The position numbers and the translations under genes were made by a program. From a virus, in IMG/VR virus record IMGVR_UViG_3300010399_000002, positions 1 to 64,000 of that record: a stretch of 64,000 nt of DNA; one strand, written 5' to 3'. Below the pieces are notes generated by a model. It saw only the letters and a list, made by a program, of their open reading frames with translations, was not told the DNA's origin and searched no databases. Positions 15,465-25,045 of this stretch are shown here, in pieces (the stretch's first letter is position 1; each line of letters opens with the position of its first letter).

Positions 15465-15491
15465 GAACAGCCTCCTGTGGTGGAGTTATCA

Positions 15492-15546
15492 GTTACTCCA
15501 TCCCGCCGGGACACTGGTTAGAGTGTCCCGACAGAAGGATTGTAAC
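15492..15546 (-). ncRNA. Intergenic hairpin/anti-SD element, copy 1
   Basis: GUUAC-AA-UCC-15bp stem-loop-U-GGA-GUAAC. Confidence 0.85.
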
Positions 15547-15553
15547 CTTCGAG

Positions 15554-16267
15554 TTACTTCGACAAGGGGTACGTGATCTTGTACTTGTCCCCCGTCACCT
15601 TGCACGTCCACTTCTTGCCCAGATATGCCTCGAGCTGGATGCCGTTCACCAACCGAGAGGGCTTCACCTCGCACTCCTTGGCGAGAGCGTTGATCTCCTT
15701 CTCGGTCGTGCCCTTCATGGCCAGCATGAACGCCCGGCCCATCGCGCTGCCGGCTTTGAACGGCAGATCCAAACCGCTGCCCTCGGGCTTGGCCTTCTTC
15801 TTGGGCTTGTCATCCGCCTTCTCGGACTTCTTTGCGGTCTTTTTGGTCTTGTCGGACTTCTTGGCCTTGGCCTCTTTGGCGGGCTTCTTGGACTTCACGG
15901 GCTTCTTCTTGTCTTCCACGTCTTCCTCCTCGTCGTCGGTCTCGGGCTCTTCTTCGTCTTCGGGGCTGTTGTCCTCGTCGATCTCGCTGATCTCTTCGGA
16001 CTCTTCGTCCTCTTCGGTCTCTTCCACGTCGTCTTCTTCGGGCTCTTCCGCCTCGGACTTGCTGACCTTCTTCTTTGCTGCTTTTTTGTCTGCCACTTTG
16101 TCTTTCTCCTTTTTCGGTCTGGGACCGGTTGGTTCCGCGTCGTCCAGGCAATCACTGGAACAGTACTCGCCCTTCTTACCACGGTATGTGAACGTTTTGG
16201 TGAACGGCTTGTGACAATGGTCGCAAGCGGTCTTTTTGGTTGGTTGACTCTTGTTCTCGTCTGACAC
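15554..16267 (-). CDS. Zn-finger (CxxC...YCSxxC) protein with acidic/lysine-rich linker and C-terminal small domain
   Basis: 237 aa, AAGGAGG SD before GTG, strongly biased codon usage. Confidence 0.85.
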   Translation of the reverse strand: MSDENKSQPTKKTACDHCHKPFTKTFTYRGKKGEYCSSDCLDDAEPTGPRPKKEKDKVADKKAAKKKVSKSEAEEPEEDDVEETEEDEESEEISEIDEDNSPEDEEEPETDDEEEDVEDKKKPVKSKKPAKEAKAKKSDKTKKTAKKSEKADDKPKKKAKPEGSGLDLPFKAGSAMGRAFMLAMKGTTEKEINALAKECEVKPSRLVNGIQLEAYLGKKWTCKVTGDKYKITYPLSK

Positions 16268-16295
16268 GTCTGCCTCCTTGAAAATCGGATGGCCC

Positions 16296-16352
16296 GGTTA
16301 CTCCATCCCACCAGCCCACTCGAATGAGTGAGCTGATAGAAGGATTGTAACC
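16296..16352 (-). ncRNA. Intergenic hairpin/anti-SD element, copy 2
   Basis: GGUUAC-AA-UCC-16bp stem-AUUC loop-U-GGA-GUAACC. Confidence 0.85.
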
Positions 16353-16354
16353 TT

Positions 16355-16696
16355 CTAACGAAAACCCCACCGAGCCATCACGTCTGGCTCCGATGCGTTC
16401 TCCATCACATCACTCGTGCAAACTGGACAACCATCATGGAGATCCTTCCGACGAAAGTCGTTAGTGAACTCGCCTGAGCAGCCCGACTCTTGCATGATTG
16501 GATCATCCCACGCGGTAGACTCCATCCGACACTGCTGCCATTCGTTTGTGCGCTTGTTGATAAACCAGTGGTCTTCCTTGCGGTGCTGCAAGGCTCGAGC
16601 ACGTTGATAAACAGAATCGAGTGTAGACGGCATCAGCTTTGACAGTAGCTTAAAAAGCCATCGCCACCTTCTATCGAACTGACCTACTGTCTGCAT
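16355..16696 (-). CDS. Hypothetical protein (MQTVGQF...)
   Basis: Start fixed by AAGGAGGCAGTAACC-ATG. Confidence 0.75.
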   Translation of the reverse strand: MQTVGQFDRRWRWLFKLLSKLMPSTLDSVYQRARALQHRKEDHWFINKRTNEWQQCRMESTAWDDPIMQESGCSGEFTNDFRRKDLHDGCPVCTSDVMENASEPDVMARWGFR

Positions 16697-16725
16697 GGTT
16701 ACTGCCTCCTTTTTGGTGGAACTCG

Positions 16726-16784
16726 AATCGTTCCATCCGGCCAACCCACTGCTGCGACAGTGAGCTGACTGAAGGACTACGATT
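16726..16784 (-). ncRNA. Intergenic hairpin/anti-SD element, copy 3
   Basis: AAUCGU-AG-UCC...U-GGA-ACGAUU; outer stem covaries with the other copies. Confidence 0.85.
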
Positions 16785-17554
16785 GGCCTGGAGACTTGGT
16801 AAGTGCCTCGTTGTCCGTCAAGCACTCGTGAACGATGAACCTCGCTGCTGCGGCTGTCTCGTCCAACGTCCCCAAATGCACTGCGCCTTCGATGGGACGC
16901 CGATCAATCTTGGTTGTCAACTGATACAGCACTCGACCGTTGACACCTTCCTCGCGCTGCTTCTCGATGGTAAACGCAATGTGGACCTTCATCTCGTATC
17001 CTCCCTAACTGGAGCTGTGGCGATCAGCCCGAACAGATGAATCGGACTGCGATCACTGTACACCATAAACACGAACAGTTGGGCCTTGCTCCAGCCTTTT
17101 TGCCTCCACGGATTGGACACCTCGCCGTGAGGTATTACAAGCACGGTGTCATTATTCTTACCGATATACCAACCCGGACCTTTGAACTTAAACGTGGGCA
17201 TCTGGAACTCCATCTTCTTTACGGTCCCGGCCATTGTCCAATCCGGATAGATGTCAAACGACAACCTGGACTGTTTCTTCGACTGTTTCTTCTTCACGGC
17301 TTCACCTTTCCGGCCTTGCGCTGCGCTTTCACAAACGCAACCAACGCCTTGTAAACCTCGGGCGAGCACTCCACTGACCAATTACGGTCAACGCGAGTAA
17401 CACAGAACTCACCAACCTCGGTGTCTACAAAGTAGTCTACGGCACCATCCTCGTCTCGAAGGTCGAGCACTTCGCCCACCTTCATAGAACCCAGAAACGA
17501 GGGCTTGAAAAACCTTTCGGGCTTTCCTTTTCGAGCCTTACTGATCTTCGCCAT
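16777..17554 (-). other. Three hypothetical genes (16777-16992, 16989-~17297, 17294-17554)
   Basis: Coupled ORFs; the first is preceded by AAGGAGGCAGTAACC. Confidence 0.7.
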
Positions 17555-17577
17555 GGTTACTGCCTCCTTTGTCTTCC

Positions 17578-17650
17578 GACCTGTCTCATCAGTGTTGGTA
17601 GGTCATTTCCAACAGAGCCTCGTAGAAGTTTTCCCACGAGGCTTTCGACA
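17578..17650 (-). ncRNA. Type II hammerhead ribozyme 1
   Basis: UGUC-GAAA-[GCCUCGUGGGAA AAC UUCUACGAGGC]-UC^-[UGUUGG loop CCAACA]-CUGAUGA-GACA; loop GACCU pairs with 3' AGGUC; predicted cut between 17615 and 17614. Confidence 0.92.
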
Positions 17651-17748
17651 AAAATACTCGAGAGTGAAACGCATGGAGATATAGGAGGCATAGCGTTACT
17701 CCACCAGTTCACTCCCGAGGTAGCCACGATCCCAAGTGACTACAAAAC

Positions 17749-18888
17749 TCAAGGTGTCTTGGTGAAGACTGCTCTCACCTCATCTTTGTTGAACTCCACA
17801 CGCCAGAAATTGTGTCTGAGGTCTTTGGAATATGCAATCAATCGCTGAGCCGGGTCGGCACACGGCAAACCGTTGGTAACATCGGCCTGCTTATGCCACT
17901 GCCCGTCTTGCAAGCGCGCCCAAATCATCGCCATGGCTGAACCTGGCGCATACATACCGCCGATCTTCTCACCTTTGGTTCGCTTGAGATTGCTCTTCGG
18001 TCCAGATGCTACACCCGGAACCTTCGGAGCTTTCGGTTTCTTGGGCTGTTTACCGTTGCCGACCACCACACCTGGCCCACCGGCTGTCCTGGCTGCAATG
18101 TTGCGAATGAGCAACCTGGAAGGTACGGTGCCGAGGTATGCCAACCAAGCATCGGCTACAGTCTGTACTGATGGAAGGACTTGGTCCAGCTTCACGACAT
18201 GCTGGCCATCGACCACCTGCACAGCGGAGGCTGTAAGCACGGTGCGAAGCTGACTCAGTAATAGTGGTAGCACCCCTTCGCGCTTGACCTGATGGTAGAG
18301 CTGTTGAGCGTATTCACGGCTGAAGGTGACTGTGCCGTTGCCGTCGAATTGTCTGGCCTTCTCGGCTTCGGCTACGGCGAATTTGATCTTCCCGCCGAAC
18401 GCCTTGTTAAGTGGAGTAACCACGGTATCGAACTTCCCGGTCAATCTGGCTTGCGATGCTTCGAGCTTTCCGCGCACCGCTTCCAGCTTCTTGTAGTAGG
18501 TCTCCATCTCGGGCATTTTGGGTATGACCTTCGACTCGCGCACGATCTTCTCGTACAAGCGAACCGCGGTACGCAGAGAAAGCTCCTGCTCTTGCTCAGT
18601 GGCACCTGGATTGATACCCAAGTTACGCGCACCGTTGGCTCGATTGTAGGACTTTTGCATCTCCGCTGACTGGGCTAGGTTAGTGTTCTGACTCAACACG
18701 TACGGCACGGCAACATCATACCAATTGATAGCTTCACTCAACGCAGTAAGCTGCATGGGAATAGAAGCTGTAATCAACTGCCTGTACGCCTTGAGTAGCA
18801 AACTGAGCTTGGGCTTGGGATACTGCGGAGCTGCTTTGACTTTCTTTGGCGCTCTCGGCGCCTTTGGTTGTCTTCTTTTGAACGGCAC
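17749..18888 (-). CDS. Hypothetical basic protein (379 aa) with C-terminal small domain shared with two other ORFs
   Basis: Long ORF, AAGGAGG SD, upstream GGTACAAT -10-like box. Confidence 0.85.
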   Translation of the reverse strand: MPFKRRQPKAPRAPKKVKAAPQYPKPKLSLLLKAYRQLITASIPMQLTALSEAINWYDVAVPYVLSQNTNLAQSAEMQKSYNRANGARNLGINPGATEQEQELSLRTAVRLYEKIVRESKVIPKMPEMETYYKKLEAVRGKLEASQARLTGKFDTVVTPLNKAFGGKIKFAVAEAEKARQFDGNGTVTFSREYAQQLYHQVKREGVLPLLLSQLRTVLTASAVQVVDGQHVVKLDQVLPSVQTVADAWLAYLGTVPSRLLIRNIAARTAGGPGVVVGNGKQPKKPKAPKVPGVASGPKSNLKRTKGEKIGGMYAPGSAMAMIWARLQDGQWHKQADVTNGLPCADPAQRLIAYSKDLRHNFWRVEFNKDEVRAVFTKTP

Positions 18889-19086
18889 TCTTGCCTCCTT
18901 GACGGAAAGTGTAATTGTACCTTACTTAGGGTCTCTTCTTGAACTTCAACTCGGCGTCGGCTCTGGTAGGAGCCTGGATGACTGTTGAGCCTTTGAACTT
19001 TTTGGACTGGTGATGGATCTCTTTCTTGTCGGTGTGATAAGCGAAGGCTGAACCTCCGGCTGTTACCAACCACAGAGTAGATTTAC

Positions 19087-19428
19087 TCATAGTGAATCCC
19101 TCATGGCCCTTACAAGGCACGCTGGCTTGTTGCAAGCGCCCCGACCGAAATCGTGTGTACCTACGTACGTGTACTTTTTCTTGCAGTACCTGCACACTGC
19201 GGTATGCTCCACTTGTACCGACTTGTACTTCACAAGTCTGCCGGTCTTCTTCAGAAGAGTAAGGGAGCCTCCATCTAACTGCAGGATTATCCCTTTGATT
19301 GGATCGACTGACTTCGTTCTCCGACCCGGTTCGTTACCGCGCTTGGCGTCCTCTTGCAATGTAACAATCTCGCGCTCCCAATCTCGAACCGACATGGTAC
19401 GAACGTATGTAACGAAACGCTGACTCAC
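19087..19428 (-). CDS. Hypothetical Zn-binding protein (VSQRFVTY..., CRYC...C..PAC)
   Basis: AAGGAGGT SD before GTG. Confidence 0.7.
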   Translation of the reverse strand: MSQRFVTYVRTMSVRDWEREIVTLQEDAKRGNEPGRRTKSVDPIKGIILQLDGGSLTLLKKTGRLVKYKSVQVEHTAVCRYCKKKYTYVGTHDFGRGACNKPACLVRAMRDSL

Positions 19429-19446
19429 AGTTACCTCCTTTTGAAT

Positions 19447-19502
19447 GGTTACTCCATCCGGCCAACCCACTCGGAGAATGGGTTGACTGAAGGATTGTAA
19501 CC
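19447..19502 (-). ncRNA. Intergenic hairpin/anti-SD element, copy 4
   Basis: GGUUAC-AA-UCC-UUC-A/C mismatch-12bp stem...GGA-U-GGA-GUAACC. Confidence 0.85.
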
Positions 19503-19805
19503 TTCTAGATTACAGGAACGGCGCACTTGTGCTCGTCGGCTCGAATATCGATCATCTGACCTGAACCGAGGACTGCACTATCCCTCGCAACTGGTAGACC
19601 TGATATGCGAACGACTGTTGTGCCGTCGTCCTTGTTGTTGACGTATAGGACCCCGCGACGCTGATCCCATTCGACTTCGCAATTTTCGATACGTTGCATT
19701 TTTTCTCCTTTTACTTTTGGGTCAGTTTCCAAAGCGTTAGGAACGCCCACAGAGACAACGCGAATTTCAAAGCGGCTTCGCCTGGTTCCATTTTGTGTCC
19801 TTTCG

Positions 19806-20894
19806 TCACGCCTTGGTGGGAGGAGCTGGAAGACAGAGGCGACTCGCAGCAGCAAGGAACTTCTGCTCGAAGTCTTTGGCCCTCATGACTCGCATGAACT
19901 CCCCACCGGTGGCCTTGCACGTCTCTTCGATAGCCTTGTGCATCGGATCGGCTCCGAACAACGACGTGTCTGCGCTGCTCACCAGAAGGATCACATCCAA
20001 CACGATGTTCATCTCCTTCATGGTAGGAATCAGCGTCGGCAACGATATGGCATCGTGTGACATGCCGTCGGTCACGAGAACCACATGATGCGCTCGCAAC
20101 GGCGACGGCGCCTTCTGACAGAGCTCGATGCTGGCCTTCACGGCTGGGAAAATATCGGTCCCGCCTTGAGGCGACATCAAGTTCAAAGCGTTGAGTAGAG
20201 TATCCCGCGTGTGGGCACCTTTGACATGCACGTTATGATCGAACTCGATCAACCTGATGTCGGGGTTCTCGTACTTGTTGTAGCGTTCTTCGATAGCCTT
20301 CTTGATATGCTTCTTCAAGGCCTGCATTTTGGTCTCCAGCCCGCGGAACTTGCTATAGTCCTCTTTGACTCCGAACATTTGGGTCAGGCCGAGCATCACA
20401 ACCGCGTCTTGCAGTAAGTCCTGGTTGTGAGTGAATCCCGCCAGCGCTGCAATTGCTACCTGCGGGTTCATGGACGACTGCGCTGCGCCGAACAATTGGG
20501 CCAGCAGCGCCTCCGGGTCGTTGACGTCGGGAACCTCTTCAGCCTCTTCGACCTCCGCGACCTCGTTGCTCAATGCCGTTTGGGATTCGACGATGGCTGC
20601 TGCGATCTTGGCCATGTTCTCTTCCGTCCACTTGTACAGCGTACGCGGATTGTCGGGTAGAAGATGACCGTCCATCGAACCAGAAATGTCGACGGTGAAG
20701 ATCAACTTCAAGAACTGCTGCGCCAGATCACTCAGCGACTTCGGGCCCTTGACTGGCTCGCGTTTCGCCGTCTGGGAAAGGACGAGATCTCCGCCGACCT
20801 CGGTCATCGACTGGATGTTATCATTCTTGGACTCGTCGTCCTTCTTCTTCTCGGGCTCGAGATTGTCCAAATCCAACAAAAAATTGTCACTCAT
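19806..20894 (-). CDS. von Willebrand factor A (vWA) domain protein
   Basis: MIDAS DISGSM, GGTDI, VVLVTDG, TGGEF; start moved to 20894 (SD AAGGAGGCAGTAACC). Confidence 0.85.
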   Translation of the reverse strand: MSDNFLLDLDNLEPEKKKDDESKNDNIQSMTEVGGDLVLSQTAKREPVKGPKSLSDLAQQFLKLIFTVDISGSMDGHLLPDNPRTLYKWTEENMAKIAAAIVESQTALSNEVAEVEEAEEVPDVNDPEALLAQLFGAAQSSMNPQVAIAALAGFTHNQDLLQDAVVMLGLTQMFGVKEDYSKFRGLETKMQALKKHIKKAIEERYNKYENPDIRLIEFDHNVHVKGAHTRDTLLNALNLMSPQGGTDIFPAVKASIELCQKAPSPLRAHHVVLVTDGMSHDAISLPTLIPTMKEMNIVLDVILLVSSADTSLFGADPMHKAIEETCKATGGEFMRVMRAKDFEQKFLAAASRLCLPAPPTKA

Positions 20895-20917
20895 GGTTAC
20901 TGCCTCCTTTAGTTTTT

Positions 20918-20983
20918 TGACCTGTCTCTTCAGGACGGGTAGGTCATTGCCCGCCGACGGGAGCGACTGGCTCCCGTTTCGAC
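20918..20983 (-). ncRNA. Type II hammerhead ribozyme 2
   Basis: GUC-GAAA-[CGGGAGC CAGUC GCUCCCG]-UC^-[GGCGGG loop CCCGUC]-CUGAAGA-GAC; UGACCU/AGGUCA pseudoknot; predicted cut between 20956 and 20955. Confidence 0.92.
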
Positions 20984-22310
20984 TCACTTGCAGTCTAGGG
21001 TGATGCAATTGCCATTCTGAATCCTGGCCAAAAACTTGCTCTTTCCGGACTCCGGCAACGTTGCTTGCCAAACCGACCTGGCTTCTTTCCAGCAAGTAAA
21101 AGCCTTGCGAGTGATTGGCTCACTCTCATATCTGGTAATACCGGGCGAAAGGTTAACTGGAGCTTTCTTAATCTCTGTGTCGATGACCCAGAACTTTTTC
21201 ATGCGTTTCTCCTTTCGTACTCGTACTGGAACAAGCGCTGCTGCAACCTGACTTCGATAGGGACCTTCTGTTGATTGTACCTTTGGAGTATTGGATCGAT
21301 GTTGATAGCCTTCTCGAACGCTGCCTCGGATGAATCGGCTAGCACTCGAACAACTACCGTTGGATTGTCCATCGGAGCTTCGACTAGATACCAGGCTGTC
21401 ATTTTACGACTCCTTTGAAGTGTCGAACCTGTAACGATAGATGGTAGCCTCGTACCGCCCGGTCTTGACCCAACCGTAACCGACTTCACGATACGACTTG
21501 CGAATGTCGATCTTGCGAACGTTGACCTTGTCGGCCAACCTCGCCAGTTGGTTGTGCTTCGATACGGCCAGACCGTGACGGGGCTTGATGGACCGACTGC
21601 CGTTATCGGGATTGCGGTCAATGAAGTATCGCTCTCTCCAAAATTGGAGCTGCGACTTCGCAGCCTGCAATCGTTCCTCGGCAGATGCAGACTTCTTAAC
21701 CAGTTGGGGCTGAACCTTCCGGCCATCCGGCCTGCGGTTCTCTTTGATTCGAGCCTTCCACCTCTTGATCTCGGCTTCGAGACGCGGAATTTTTCTGGCC
21801 TCTCGTCTGGCCTTGGTGATTAGATCTTTGAGGTATTGAATGTTTGACTCACATCTGTCTCTGTCGTCTTTGTAGGGCATCAGAAAACCTCCAACTCTAA
21901 GCCCAGTGACTTCGCAATCTTGCGGGCTTGAGAAACCGGAAACCACGCAATGCCGGCCTTGTCTTCTGCGTACGCTTTGTCTTTGGACTCGAATGGATCG
22001 GGATTGCCGTCTGTGAAGTACAACGGGCCGGCAGAATTGGTCTCCAACTTCAGGAACAGCTTCTTGGCCCAGCGAAGCTTCGTATTGAGCTTCATGGTTT
22101 AGTTCACCTCCGTCTCGGACATGCGCTGCGGAATCGCCTTCGTAGCAGCCTGGTAGTTAACCCAAGCTGCGTCCTTGGCTTCGCGGCTGCCGGCCTTCTT
22201 CCAGACCTTCCATGCATCGATCATCGCGACGATAGCATCGGCCCGGCGATAAGCTAACTGCTCACGTTCACTCGTCATAGTTACTGCCTCCTTTTGTGGT
22301 GGAGTTATCA

Positions 22311-22364
22311 GTTACTCCATCCGGTCGGATCACTCAGAGAATGATCCGGCTGAAGGATTGTAAC
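22311..22364 (-). ncRNA. Intergenic hairpin/anti-SD element, copy 5
   Basis: Same consensus with a covarying upper stem. Confidence 0.85.
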
Positions 22365-23429
22365 CCTTACCGTGTCTTGATCTTCAGACCCGACTCGAGA
22401 GCCTCGCGCAGTGCCTTCGCAATTCGTCTGGCACCTCGTGTATCCCACATCCTGGTCTTTTTGTTGTACTGATATCCGTCGCAGTAACCGCCGAACACGT
22501 ATATGCCGGCGGCCTTACCTGATGGAACGATCTTGATCTCGAACTTGTAATGCTCGGTTGGTTTTCTCATGATCTCCTTTTCAAACCTTGTTGGTTGAGA
22601 TTGAACCTTTCACGACACTCCAACCGAAAGATGACCAACGACCTTCGGTTGGTCTCCACGACCTTTCGTTATGGGCGTAGGCTAATTCGATTGTAGGAGT
22701 CTCTTGCGCGTCTTCTTTGGACTCGGACGGGTAGCTCTTGACTACGATCTTGCTGACTGCTTCTTGCGTTGCAGGGTAGCATGAATCGTACCTGAGCATG
22801 TCCAAAGGGAAAGTGAATTTCCCGACCACTTTGAATCTCGTAATGTACATCATATGGCTTCGGCTTTCTCCTTTGCGGTATTGAGTAGCGATTGCAGCCT
22901 CGTGATCTCGTTCAGCAAGTCTTCTTTTCCCCACCTATAGTTTGGATTGTACTTGCCGGCCTCGAGAGCAACGTCGCGAAGAGAATTGGCTGCTGCACGC
23001 GTGCGCTGCTGCTTCTCAAGATAGGCTGTACGTTCTTCAAACGTTGCTTCATCCAATTGGTAATTGTGATAGCCAGAAGCACCTTGCAGCTTGCCGTCGG
23101 GACGAAACCGCATCGGCGATCCATCTCCGATCTTAACGTCGACGCAGCCACTCGGTGTTCTCTTGACTACCTCGCCTAGAGTGTAGTGAATATCGTGTCC
23201 GGTAAACCGAGCCAGATAAACTTGAGTCACTGAGCACCTCCCGATATAGCAACGAACACAGCGACGAATTGGTCTGGCTTCGGCATCTCCCACCGCAGAA
23301 TCTGCATGACCTTCCACGGCTTGCGCGCTGCGTCAAACCACGTGTCACCCTGCTTGGGGGCTCGCTTCTCGCCGGCTTTAAAAACTTGGGCTTTCATGGT
23401 TACTGCCTCCTTTTAATTGGTGGATTCTT

Positions 23430-23483
23430 GTCGTTCCATCCGGTCAGCCCACTCGCAGAATGGGCTGGCTGAAGGACTACGAC
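23430..23483 (-). ncRNA. Intergenic hairpin/anti-SD element, copy 6
   Basis: GUCGU-AG-UCC...U-GGA-ACGAC. Confidence 0.85.
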
Positions 23484-23934
23484 GCTTGCGGACTGTGCGC
23501 TGCGTGGCTTCGTATCCACGGCTGCGGCTTTTCCACTTTGGCTAGTGGAATAGTGAGGTCTCGACTTCCGATCTCGATCTTCAGCGACAGGAACGTCAAG
23601 TAACTTCGCTGATCTAGACAGTGGATCGTAGTCTCCGTCTTCAACAACTTGATGGCTTCGCGTCTCGTCATTGTCTCTCCTCAATTGGGATAAGTAACTT
23701 TCTTGTGAGGGAACTGGCCTGCCCAACTCTTAACTTCGTCTCGTAACTGAAGATACGACTCGTACTGCTGTCCACCTTTGAGGATCTCGCTATTTGTTCC
23801 GAACTGGACGATGCGCTCGAAGGCTTCGAACTTTTTCCACATGCGAGCTACCAACCTGTCGAACTGGATATCGTTCATGTCTGCTCCTTTTAGTCGTCGA
23901 TGTCTTTGCCGAAGTTGCTGGGATTGGAGTTATT

Positions 23935-23999
23935 AGGTTACTCCATCCGGCCAAACCACTCGCATTGCTGCGAATGATCTGACCAAAGGATTGTAACCT
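23935..23999 (-). ncRNA. Intergenic hairpin/anti-SD element, copy 7
   Basis: AGGUUAC-AA-UCC-19bp stem capped by a GCAA tetraloop. Confidence 0.85.
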
Positions 24000-24012
24000 G
24001 TTTCCCGTGCAG

Positions 24013-24710
24013 AGCATCTACTGAGCTGGCACGTAAGTGTTACTAAGTATGCAAGCTAGCTGTGGATGTCTTCGCGCTGGCTACCATTTGGAAACCTTTG
24101 GTCGCTTTCTCGTGGCCTTCTGTCGTAGAGTCAGCTTGGAGGACATCACGTTGCGTCACTCACTAGTGTACTAGTATAGAGTAGACCAGTCCGTTCAGTG
24201 CGCAGGGAACATAAGCAGAACCTGCAGGCATTTCCGACTCGGCTTGGACCAGATGAATCTTCGGTCTCGAACCATCGAGCGCTCGTCTTCGTTCAATCAC
24301 CATGGGTTGTGGTATTGAACCAGCGTCTGCTATTCGGTTTTCAAATGCGGCTGTTAACCGCGCTGTCCCTGTAGTACTAGTGAGATCCTGCGAGAGCTCA
24401 TACGGCGCTTCGCAAGTGGGGCATTCCCAGCGGTACCGACTGCAAACCTTGGAAGGCTCGCTTCATTAGGCACTTCAGTGCTGGTGGTTGAACCCTTGAC
24501 TCTCAAGAACCCTTGGGGAGCTCAGCGTTGAATAGCGCTGCGAGATCCGGTAAAGCTTCTCGCCTCCGTAGAAGGAGCCAAACCAAACGAAAACGTAGTC
24601 GGTGGTTGCGAAGGTATAACCGGCGTTGGTCCCTCGGGGCGCCTGGCACTTTGGCCCCTTCGCGTATTCGGTTGGTTGGTTTGCTATTCGCTTCATCACA
24701 GTAGAACACT
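24013..24710 (-). ncRNA. Putative ~700-nt highly structured non-coding RNA
   Basis: No credible CDS; 5' and 3' ends pair; many nested long-range helices; TATACT box 7 nt upstream. Confidence 0.7.
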
Positions 24711-24717
24711 ATAGGAT

Positions 24718-24723
24718 AGTATA
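24718..24723 (-). promoter_or_regulatory. -10 element (TATACT) of the putative early promoter
   Basis: Lies 7 nt upstream of the first base of the terminal stem; no canonical -35 at 17 bp. Confidence 0.45.
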
Positions 24724-25045
24724 GGATAGGGATAGAAAGGGGGCTTTGGGGAACTTTATTTTCACTTTGTTTTCAATCACTTACAAGAAACACCCCTTGC
24801 ACGGTGCCCTCGTAAACCCTTTAGAACGTTGGGTTTACACGGGGTCTCAGAAGCCAAAAATGGGGATTTTTGGAGCTTCGGTGGGTCCTACGCGGCCGGT
24901 GGTAGTGGTAGGAAACGGCAAACGGACGCGGTACAAGAGCTGCTACGGGGTAGTTTTCGCGGCGGTGGGGTAAGGGAAAGGACCCTGAACAAATATCCAA
25001 CTTGGGGCTTGACACTCGGCCCCTTTTCCCCTTTCACTTTGGGAG

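Follow-up and report, generated by a model that had tools for sequence, protein, structure and literature searches.

A previously undescribed RNA element, a bulged hairpin of about 60 nt and 25 bp, is repeated seven times between the early genes of a novel, complete soil phage of 114.7 kb. We propose that these hairpins may be modules at which a single long early transcript is processed and stabilized between its cistrons, a reading to which we assign a probability of roughly 45%. Translational on/off switching, the main model of the initial annotation, is less well supported than cutting and stabilizing of the early mRNA.

Seven covarying hairpins in one early operon

The initial annotation, made on the window (positions 1 to 64,000 of the viral record, 64,000 nucleotides in all), had reported seven copies. 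They lie between 15.49 and 24.00 kb, all on the minus strand, and a covariance-model search of the whole 114.7-kb genome returned exactly these seven and none elsewhere (Table 1). The observed count of conserved 14-mers exceeds that of every one of 100 shuffles. All copies have the same orientation and belong to one operon.

Table 1 Positions of the hairpins, linker boxes and hammerheads in the window. Bit scores of the hairpins are from the covariance model; p values compare the alternative helix with composition-preserving linker shuffles.
Feature	Position	Strand	Characteristics	Score
Hairpin copy 1	15491..15547	-	Type A, outer stem GGUUAC/GUAAC	74.3 bits
Hairpin copy 2	16296..16352	-	Type A outer stem; all 25 bp paired	79.5 bits
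Hairpin copy 3	16726..16784	-	Type B, outer stem AUCGU/ACGAU	68.1 bits
Hairpin copy 4	19447..19502	-	Type A	80.4 bits
Hairpin copy 5	22310..22365	-	Type A; two A-C mismatches in middle stem	74.7 bits
Hairpin copy 6	23429..23484	-	Type B, outer stem GUCGU/ACGAC	75.1 bits
Hairpin copy 7	23936..23998	-	Type A; upper stem longer by 3 bp (28 pairs)	71.9 bits
Linker box copy 1	15481..15486	-	ACUCCA, partner of 3′-arm UGGAGU	p 0.037
Linker box copy 2	16287..16292	-	CCAUCC, pairs with the shared GGAUGG core	p 0.16
Linker box copy 3	16717..16722	-	GUUCCA, fits the type B arm UGGAAC	p 0.003
Linker box copy 4	19443..19448	-	CCAUUC, overlaps the final two outer-stem bases	p 0.027
Linker box copy 5	22300..22305	-	ACUCCA	p 0.003
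Linker box copy 6	23421..23424	-	UCCA, 4 bp only	p 0.030
Linker box copy 7	23925..23930	-	ACUCCA	p 0.030
Type II hammerhead	20916..20984	-	RF02276, full model length	33.3 bits (cut-off 37), E 1.4e-5
Second hammerhead-like element	17578..17650	-	Complete GAAA / CUC / CUGAUGA core	no Rfam match

The consensus is as first described: outer stem, A(A/G) bulge, UCC, long stem-loop, U bulge, GGA and outer stem. The AA or AG bulge of the 5′ arm is invariant, as is the U bulge of the 3′ arm 3 bp away, and four copies contain an A-C mismatch (1×1). The invariant pairs fall into two boxes (alignment columns 11-15 and 25-28, with their partners) that are 10-13 bp, or about one helical turn, apart and lie on one helical face. 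The invariant part consists of the bulged lower-middle stem and the second box about one turn higher, the remaining pairs being free to covary, and the loops vary among copies. In the alignment of the seven copies with one homologue, 95.5% of the cells are paired, compared with 82.5 ± 1.5% in shuffles (0 of 500 reach 95.5%); registers slid as a control give pairing of at most 46.5%. The covariation claimed earlier is confirmed, as both sides have changed at 13 of the 25 pairs and three outer-stem sequence types occur, all of which pair. The same is true of the claim that the G-U pairs (30 cells) work on the minus strand only: the covariance model scores 68-80 bits on this strand and 16-28 bits on the plus strand. 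Covariation and strand scores thus support an element that functions as RNA on the mRNA strand, and the one-strand G-U pairs together with compensatory changes in both helices (the lower stem and the alternative helix described below) argue for selection on the RNA.

A single true homologue was found, on a metagenome contig that shares nothing else with the phage; it carries a third outer-stem sequence, which still pairs. The hairpin is the only similarity between the phage and contigs L005/L014 (82-84% identity over 43-60 nt), and tblastx of the phage against these contigs gave no match. A pattern search of 185,579 bacterial species genomes returned no true copies, since all seven matches fold poorly and are chance occurrences. 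Rfam yielded no match to the hairpins, whether at the gathering threshold, across 10 kb with E ≤ 5, or with permissive settings on stretches of 106-116 nt; the same permissive scan did recover the neighboring hammerhead. With its clear covariation, this undescribed motif could therefore seed a new RNA family.

The placement of the copies between an upstream stop codon and a downstream Shine-Dalgarno sequence (SD) is borne out by the coordinates. The stop lies 1-6 nt before the outer stem in copies 1, 2, 4 and 5 (6 nt after the stop of a 237-aa gene in copy 1, UAG at 2 nt in copies 2 and 4, UAA at 1 nt in copy 5), while in copies 3 and 6 the last U of the outer stem and the AG bulge themselves form the UAG. 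Hence the stop is at or inside the hairpin base in 7/7 copies that have an upstream ORF, the foreign homologue included; in copies 2-6 and the homologue this position would let a ribosome disrupt the first helix, in copy 1, with its 6-nt gap, only marginally. Copy 7 follows a leader of about 700 nt, the large RNA of the initial annotation, and no ORF ends nearby. The gap from hairpin to SD is 15-18 nt, with exceptions of 8 nt in copy 4 and 48 nt in copy 7. All copies are between co-oriented genes, presumably on a polycistronic transcript. A prediction scan listed no promoter-like or terminator-like site at any of the seven copies, which by prediction places them all inside one transcription unit. 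Intrinsic terminators were rejected as an identity for the hairpins, no U tract following any copy and the terminator scan listing none of them.

Sequence around the hairpins is also repeated. The flanks are common to the copies from stop codon to SD, copies 1 and 5 have an identical 21-nt tail, AAGG borders the type A copies on both sides, and the translation-initiation region recurs at five genes.

Alternative pairing of the 3′ arm

According to the initial annotation, the 3′ arm of each hairpin has a second partner just downstream that changes in step with the outer stem. Such a partner is present in all copies and pairs better than composition-preserving shuffles of the linker in 6 of 8 sequences (p 0.003-0.037). 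The match to the outer stem is only partial: the linker box fits the outer-stem type of its own copy in copies 1/5/7, 3 and 4 (three lineages), whereas in copies 2 and 6 and in the homologue it pairs with nothing beyond the shared GGAUGG core. The alternative helix always begins within GGAUGGA and shares GGAUGGA(GU) with the lower stem. The lower stem and the 3′-arm/linker helix are thus mutually exclusive, both show selection, and the proposed competition for the 3′ arm is supported. In stability, the main hairpin exceeds the alternative helix by 20-35 kcal/mol.

The output half of the proposed switch, an anti-SD that blocks the SD, is not supported. Pairing of the linker with the SD exists in the sequence, but it is weak (ensemble -0.3 to -8 kcal/mol) and does not rise above that of shuffled linkers (p 0.12-0.66); copy 2 is the only copy in which a moderately stable linker-SD helix is also predicted. 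Masking of the first 14 nt, that is of the 5′ arm, in a partition-function model raises the probability that the SD is unpaired in 7 of 8 copies (for example from 0.01 to 0.44 and from 0.23 to 0.86), an effect that is modest, compositional and reversed in copy 4 (0.71 to 0.33). The layout of copy 7 also speaks against this half of the switch. There, the alternative helix is kept despite the lack of an upstream ORF and with the SD 48 nt away, which fits a role in processing and does not fit coupling driven by a ribosome.

Proposed processing of the early transcript and its alternatives

Two of the junctions in this operon are occupied by type II hammerheads instead of hairpins, and these junctions, both ahead of the same initiation region, are equivalent to the hairpin junctions. 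The hammerhead at 20916..20984 is directly 3′ of a stop codon and ahead of the same translation-initiation region, and stems I and III of the second element (17578..17650) covary with those of the first. In the processing model, each hairpin would receive a single cut from an RNase III-type host endonuclease specific for double strands, at a position guessed to be within or close to the conserved bulged part of the 3′ arm. Most of the hairpin would stay on the upstream cistron and cap its 3′ end against exonucleases. The released remnant of the 3′ arm would fold with the linker box into a hairpin of 4-7 bp at the new 5′ end, which may help the fragments to separate, may protect from 5′-end-dependent decay, and would leave unpaired the strong SD that follows after 4-10 nt. 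Hammerhead cleavage at the other two junctions would yield the same end state, in which the upstream product carries a 3′ hairpin and the downstream product a 5′ hairpin.

The processing site offered as one option by the initial annotation gains support from the substrate-like size and shape of the hairpins, from the alternative helix kept in copy 7 and from the hammerheads at equivalent junctions. Judged from the predicted fold (25 bp, about two helical turns, small AA and U bulges, a 1×1 mismatch), the hairpins fit the RNase III substrate class. Such sites have stems of about 20 bp or more, and here there are 25 pairs (28 in copy 7); the bulges and the A-C mismatch likewise resemble the irregularities that restrict cutting of such sites to one arm, and every copy is intercistronic. 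Neither RNase III nor a dsRNA-binding domain was found among the proteins encoded by the phage, so the processing enzyme would be that of the host. Against processing, the lower duplex of 9-12 bp might hold the fragments together after a single cut, and the tight placement of the stop codons is not required by a pure processing model.

RNase III needs no specific sequence, and the strict conservation of the lower stem, extending to an otherwise unrelated contig, is therefore just as compatible with a mobile element or with a protein that recognizes the sequence. Such a binder could come from the host or be made early or in the middle phase by the phage, with the hairpin as its operator, coordinating the stability or translation of the early cistrons. 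Invariant bulges and flanking pairs within a helix that otherwise covaries, the two boxes on one face, and a free loop, which fits recognition of helix and bulge, all agree with this; we nevertheless regard it as unlikely, though less so than the alternatives below, because no candidate protein was found (the approximately 20 early ORFs have no Pfam families) and because an operator by itself leaves the selected alternative helix and the stop-codon placement unexplained. These two features favor a translational coupling switch without cleavage. In that scheme, the terminating ribosome melts the 5′ arm, the 3′ arm captures the linker box that damps the SD, and downstream translation comes to depend on upstream translation. 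The effect of masking in 7 of 8 copies is in its favor, but the chance-level linker-SD pairing, the reversal in copy 4 and the layout of copy 7 are not; moreover, a ribosome terminating 6 nt from the stem of copy 1 would barely open it, and a main hairpin of such stability would re-form quickly. We consider the coupling switch more doubtful than the operator.

Mobility of the element can be taken in two ways. Hairpin and linker box might together form a bistable, self-contained module for junctions that passes horizontally among unrelated soil phages and is functionally interchangeable with type II hammerheads, in which a trigger (cleavage by a nuclease, termination of a ribosome or intrinsic self-cleavage) flips the long hairpin into a pair of short hairpins capping both neighboring cistrons; we place this below the coupling switch in likelihood. 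Alternatively, the hairpin could be a by-product, or a simple 3′ stabilizer, in a mobile or recombinogenic intergenic cassette (compare T4-type PeSL cassettes or a MITE) spreading between phages and junctions. The isolated similarity to contigs L005/L014, the common flanks with the identical tail of copies 1 and 5, the initiation region at five genes and the AAGG borders point that way. Selection on the RNA, the lack of copies in bacterial genomes, the single orientation in a single operon and the absence of a Y1-type transposase (PF01797) from the proteins of the phage point the other way, and we judge the cassette less probable again. REP/RAYT or IS200/IS605-type DNA hairpins were rejected on the missing PF01797 match, the lack of true genomic copies elsewhere and the strand-asymmetric G-U pairing. 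New classes of ribozyme have been discovered before through their association with known ones, and the hairpins share their kind of junction with two hammerheads and conserve their bulge nucleotides. A new self-cleaving class doing the same job as those hammerheads, an option in the initial annotation, is nonetheless very improbable for an element that consists of one near-perfect helix, varies in its loops, lacks both a multi-helix junction and a conserved pseudoknot, and matches no Rfam ribozyme model even in permissive small-region scans.

If the processing model is true, one phage operon would have its long early mRNA cut into capped units in two unrelated ways, by ribozymes and by hairpins that depend on a protein, and would provide a natural system for comparing the two modes of cutting. 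The selected alternative helix gives a testable model for processing, product release and 5′-end protection within about 80 nt. Since the hairpin also occurs in a second phage contig that is unrelated in every other respect, one may ask whether phages exchange such junction modules whole.

Relation to known systems

Paralogous, sequence-related intercistronic hairpins of about two turns, with small loops or bulges and on a polycistronic phage transcript, are also found in the RNase III sites of T7 (R0.3 to R18.5) and the Bs-RNase III sites of SP82; references on sites of this type include Panganiban and Whiteley (1983) and Mitra and Bechhofer (1994). The hairpins described here differ in having staggered AA and U bulges in place of one internal loop, and in the selected second helix between 3′ arm and linker, which to our knowledge has no counterpart in the T7 or SP82 sites; cleavage of the present hairpins is putative. 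Classic RNase III sites are stable stem-loops with small internal bulges (PMC4838370). SP82 targets, like those T7 stems that contain an internal bubble, receive a single cut on the downstream side, and a cut on this arm leaves a 3′ hairpin on the upstream mRNA (PMC1935012). Once RNase III has cut SP82 RNA, the downstream part is stabilized by an SD-like, purine-rich element close to its new 5′ end (Hue et al. 1995, as cited in PMC7509114). As with such Gram-positive 5′ stabilizers (the SP82 polypurine, 5′-terminal stem-loops), the new 5′ end here would carry GGAUGGAG folded into a hairpin, whose role, unlike theirs, is putative.

In ermC-type attenuation and in lambda cIII, a ribosome or RNase III shifts the balance between mutually exclusive helices and changes downstream initiation, the SD or start codon belonging to one helix. 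Mutually exclusive helices under selection are present here too. In contrast, SD sequestration is not supported, as pairing of linker and SD stays at the level of shuffled linkers and the hairpin ends 8-48 nt before the SD; the upstream reading frame is a full gene and not a leader peptide.

Likeness to the SAS/ESAS repeats of Cluster K mycobacteriophages is one of layout only. SAS is a conserved initiation-region repeat of unknown function at a subset of non-structural genes, and at about half of these an inverted repeat whose spacer varies lies further upstream (ESAS); as departures in ESAS go uncompensated, its authors saw little reason to assume an mRNA hairpin (PMC3203893). Membership in this group (13-bp SAS consensus, imperfect 17-bp inverted repeats without compensation) was rejected, given that the two show no relation in sequence and that our hairpins have longer, strongly covarying arms.

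Clustered hammerheads that flank genes in prophages are reported to imply the cutting of long transcripts into gene-length mRNAs (Perreault et al. 2011, PMC3088659). Like them, the hairpins are structured elements at the gene junctions of long phage transcripts; lacking a ribozyme core, however, they would depend on a nuclease protein for cleavage.

Structure and distribution of the intercistronic hairpins

The seven bulged hairpins that the initial annotation described between genes are all present where it put them, and two conserved 14-mers are commoner in the window than in any of 100 shuffles. A covariance model (R1), built from the seven window copies and one foreign homologue, recovers exactly these seven over the whole 114.7-kb genome, on the minus strand at 68.1-80.4 bits. 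At the same places on the plus strand it scores 16.1-27.7 bits, as expected from the claim that the G-U pairs function on the minus strand only; the asymmetry arises because the hairpin cells hold 30 G-U and only six A-C or C-A combinations. The proposed structure holds as well: six outer pairs, a 2-nt bulge, three pairs, a single bulged U on the other arm and 16 further pairs. Across the eight aligned sequences 95.5% of 200 cells are paired, compared with 82.5 ± 1.5% for shuffled partners (0 of 500 reach it), and registers slid by 1-3 columns give at most 46.5%. The claimed covariation of the arms is seen in 13 of the 25 pairs, where both sides have changed, among eight copies that are all related by descent and are carried by two lineages. 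From pairing, compensation and strand asymmetry, therefore, the hairpin is a selected RNA structure in the mRNA sense.

The first A of the bulge is invariant, as are UCCUU of the 5' arm, paired with GGAUGGA of the 3' arm from which the U is bulged out, one C-G pair five steps up, and the box CAYU/AGUG beside the loop. The outer stem, of which type A (copies 1, 2, 4, 5 and 7) and type B (copies 3 and 6) are two sequence classes, and the pairs between invariant positions vary with compensation; the loops are free. The two main boxes lie 10-13 bp apart, about one A-form helix turn, a spacing that fits recognition along one helix face. Reads of two soil DNA sequencing runs carry only identical sequence, without natural variants.

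The complete virus record, assembled from a soil metagenome, has 114,732 bp with direct terminal repeats, and the window is its first 64 kb. Nearly all window genes lie on the minus strand; the recognisable ones include a family A DNA polymerase fused to a UDG domain, an SbcCD-like fusion, a DnaB-like helicase and a terminase, and the closest annotated phage polymerases show <30% identity. Between 14.8 and 24.7 kb stand ~25 small co-oriented ORFs, with a Pfam family in one only, a VWA protein; this stretch looks like an early, host-takeover operon. It is headed by a ~700-nt leader without a convincing ORF, which ends at hairpin copy 7 and whose complementarity to the hairpin arms, the linker box (3' of the hairpin) and the initiation region is no better than that of shuffles. 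Promoter and terminator scanning predicted neither a sigma-70-like promoter nor an intrinsic terminator at the hairpins, the hammerheads or the other elements discussed, and the phage encodes no RNase III, dsRBD or Y1 transposase. Elsewhere in the window, a tRNA-Pro(UGG) gene has 70% G+C compared with ~50% for the phage background.

Searching beyond the window yielded one true homologue, and none in two distant phage relatives. Against 50,697 phage records, megablast with the region and tblastn with two proteins gave nothing closer than 28% identity, and neither these records nor six IMG/VR scans contained a near relative. The two distant relatives (L002 and L003, from IMG/VR) were recovered via the VWA protein, and R1 detects no hairpin on their whole records. 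A pattern scan of metagenome contigs returned 11 loci, of which only two, L005 and L014, are genuine; they hold a single sequence, recovered from two samples. The outer stem of this homologue is a third sequence type with pairing kept (CGCU with AGCG), its stop codon is a UAG formed by the last stem U and the AG bulge, and downstream follow a box complementary to GGAUGGA, the SD and a start codon. By tblastx the two contigs do not match the window phage; they have nothing but the hairpin in common with it, and Rfam has no match on the contigs. Other hits were treated as chance: L013 (18 bits with R1, but AT-rich, eukaryote-like DNA), L001 from an IMG/VR scan (a pattern match without a stem) and seven bacterial-genome pattern matches, all of which fold poorly. 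The homologue contigs also carry a ~190-nt structured-looking leader, with the first small ORF (for a hydrophobic peptide of 39 aa) behind it, and a G+C-rich non-coding gap of 330 nt; neither leader nor gap has an Rfam match.

Coordinates of the features discussed (window positions unless a contig is named)
Feature	Position	Strand	Remarks
Hairpin, foreign homologue	L005 299-360; L014 1253-1314		two short contigs, different samples; 71.3 bits (R1)
Hammerhead 1	17578-17650	minus	same core (GAAA, CUC, CUGAUGA) and same loop I as hammerhead 2
Hammerhead 2	20916-20984	minus	Rfam Hammerhead_II, full model, 33.3 bits (cut-off 37), E 1.4e-5, 131-nt scan
Initiation region, ~19 nt	16690-16713, 17548-17571, 20888-20910, 22272-22295, 23391-23414	minus
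GAAGG/AAGG after stop codon	15534-15552, 16338-16357, 19488-19507, 22351-22370	minus	type A copies
Leader, ~700 nt	24001-24760	minus
Stem-loop	17655-17745	minus	upstream of hammerhead 1
Spacer before 379-aa gene	18889-18925	minus
tRNA-Pro(UGG) gene	254-327	minus
Leader, ~190 nt	L005 1-170; L014 955-1140
Non-coding gap, 330 nt	L005 1026-1360

Gene junctions and hammerheads

Placement between a stop codon and an SD stands for copies 1-6; copy 7 stands apart. The stop codon precedes the outer stem by 1 nt (copy 5), 2 nt (copies 2 and 4) or 6 nt (copy 1), and in copies 3 and 6 and in L005 it lies inside the hairpin base, as a UAG at the bulge. The SD stands 8-18 nt beyond the hairpin in copies 1-6 and 28 nt beyond it in L005. 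Copy 7 follows the ~700-nt leader, with no ORF end within 160 nt and its SD 48 nt downstream. Two other readings of these sites were rejected. TACAAT in the 5' arm as a promoter lacks a -35 element, is missing from type B copies and was not listed by the promoter scan; translational bypass (hopping) at the copies with UAG in the stem would lack a matching landing codon in copy 6, and all downstream genes possess an SD and start codon of their own.

A ~19-nt initiation region (AAAGGAGGCAGUAAC, then C or U, then AUG) is shared by five early genes, after hairpins and hammerheads alike, and lies 3' of hairpin copies 3, 5 and 6. The GUAAC in it is a potential partner of the type A 5' outer arm as well, a pairing present in the MFE fold of copy 5.

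Type II hammerheads occupy two other junctions of the early operon, each directly preceding this conserved initiation region. Stems I and III of hammerhead 1 differ in sequence from those of hammerhead 2, with pairing kept; hammerhead 1 has no Rfam match and is recognisable only by its core and its covariation with the other. A 10-kb Rfam scan missed both, and the 131-nt scan recovered one. After hammerhead cleavage the upstream product ends in stem III as its 3' hairpin, and the downstream product begins with stem I as its 5' hairpin. Clustered phage hammerheads have been proposed to cut long transcripts into gene-length mRNAs (Perreault et al., PMC3088659).

Two further elements resemble the hairpins. 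A stable stem-loop (-37.5 kcal/mol, z -3.6) contains GGUGGAGUAAC, similar in sequence to the hairpins' 3' arm, with CCUCC in its loop; R1 does not detect it, and it could be a member of the family that has degenerated or recombined. In the spacer before the 379-aa gene, AAGGUACAAUUAC resembles the type A 5' arm (AAGGUUACAAUCC) without a 3' partner and may be the remnant of a lost hairpin.

Competing helices between hairpin and SD

The initial annotation gave the 3' arm a second partner, the linker box, in the linker between hairpin and SD. Such a partner is present in all copies, and against 300 composition-preserving shuffles per linker the resulting helix does better in six of the eight copies, but not in copy 2 or L005. 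The helix starts at the U bulge in copies 1, 3, 5, 6 and 7, and three bases earlier in copies 2, 4 and L005. Its covariation was borne out in part: a cross-pairing matrix shows type-matched linkers in copies 1/5/7, 3 and 4, which favour own-type arms by 2.6-6 kcal/mol, and linkers without a preference in copies 2, 6 and L005. Copies 1, 5 and 7 are clearly related by descent, which leaves about three independent type-matched lineages, six in all; one p-value per lineage, combined by hand, gives roughly 1e-4 for this helix. All energies come from nearest-neighbour models.

Shuffle p-values of the two linker pairings
Copy	3'-arm/linker helix	linker-SD
1	0.037	0.157
2	0.163	0.123
3	0.003	0.380
4	0.027	0.377
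5	0.003	0.147
6	0.030	0.123
7	0.030	0.273
L005	0.277	0.663

Pairing of the linker, as an anti-SD, with the SD found no such backing: no copy does better than shuffled linkers (p 0.123-0.663). When the hairpin is forced in a partition-function model, seven copies have an SD that is 1-27% unpaired, a share that rises to 23-86% in the same seven once the first 14 nt are masked; copy 4 is reversed, from 71% to 33% on masking. For the proposed two-state switch the model's support is mixed. Because linker-SD pairing is no better than in shuffles, the modelled change is read as a compositional effect of a pyrimidine-containing linker beside GGAGG.

A tRNA-like ACCA after a short helix (4 of 8 copies) was discarded, the 5-bp helix being too short. 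In type A copies, CCUUC of the 5' arm has a potential partner in a GAAGG or AAGG immediately 3' of the stop codon (7 bp in copy 2). Another AAGG, beyond the hairpin, is contained in the SD; these flanks could be a further alternative helix, or an insertion trace with a 4-bp duplication.

Proposed processing and its alternatives

Among the options of the initial annotation we favour a processing site, and tentatively (probability about 0.45) regard the hairpins as intercistronic processing and stability modules; the SD-blocking switch lacks an output helix, linker-SD pairing being at the level of shuffles. This reading draws on structure and strand, conservation, position, the selected competing helix and the hammerheads at equivalent junctions. 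A putative host RNase III-type enzyme would make a single cut in the 3' arm, close to the conserved bulges, as happens in T7 and SP82 substrates that have internal loops (PMC1935012; PMC4838370). The upstream cistron would retain a 3' hairpin, and the 3'-arm remnant would join the linker box in a 5'-terminal hairpin; this would both release the downstream fragment from the 5' arm and protect it, and the SD, 4-10 nt beyond, would stay open.

Processing of this kind would explain both copy 7 and the absence of SD sequestration. The tight placement of the stop codons is not needed for it and is still the strongest point in favour of a coupling switch actuated by the ribosome; that switch would explain the placement, but it has no output helix and fails at copy 7, and we hold it to be unlikely. 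The invariant bulges, and the conservation across unrelated contigs, would also be explained by an operator for a sequence-specific protein, a fairly unlikely proposal for which no candidate protein was found. A mobile or recombinogenic cassette would accommodate the foreign homologue and the flanks common to the copies; selection at the RNA level speaks against it as the whole story, and it appears improbable. That the hairpins form a new ribozyme class, hinted at solely by their association with hammerheads, is very improbable. The readings are partly compatible: phages can exchange processing sites as well.

In their predicted working the hairpins are closest to the RNase III sites of T7 and SP82, whose structural and positional features they share. 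Rfam scans of the hairpins gave no family at the gathering threshold, at E<=5 over 10 kb or in permissive single-copy scans, and the hairpin belongs to none of the Rfam families. It is neither a terminator nor REP-like, and it is set apart from SAS/ESAS, whose inverted repeats lack compensation (PMC3203893). What is new here is an RNA motif with a built-in, selected alternative helix, sharing its operon with hammerheads.
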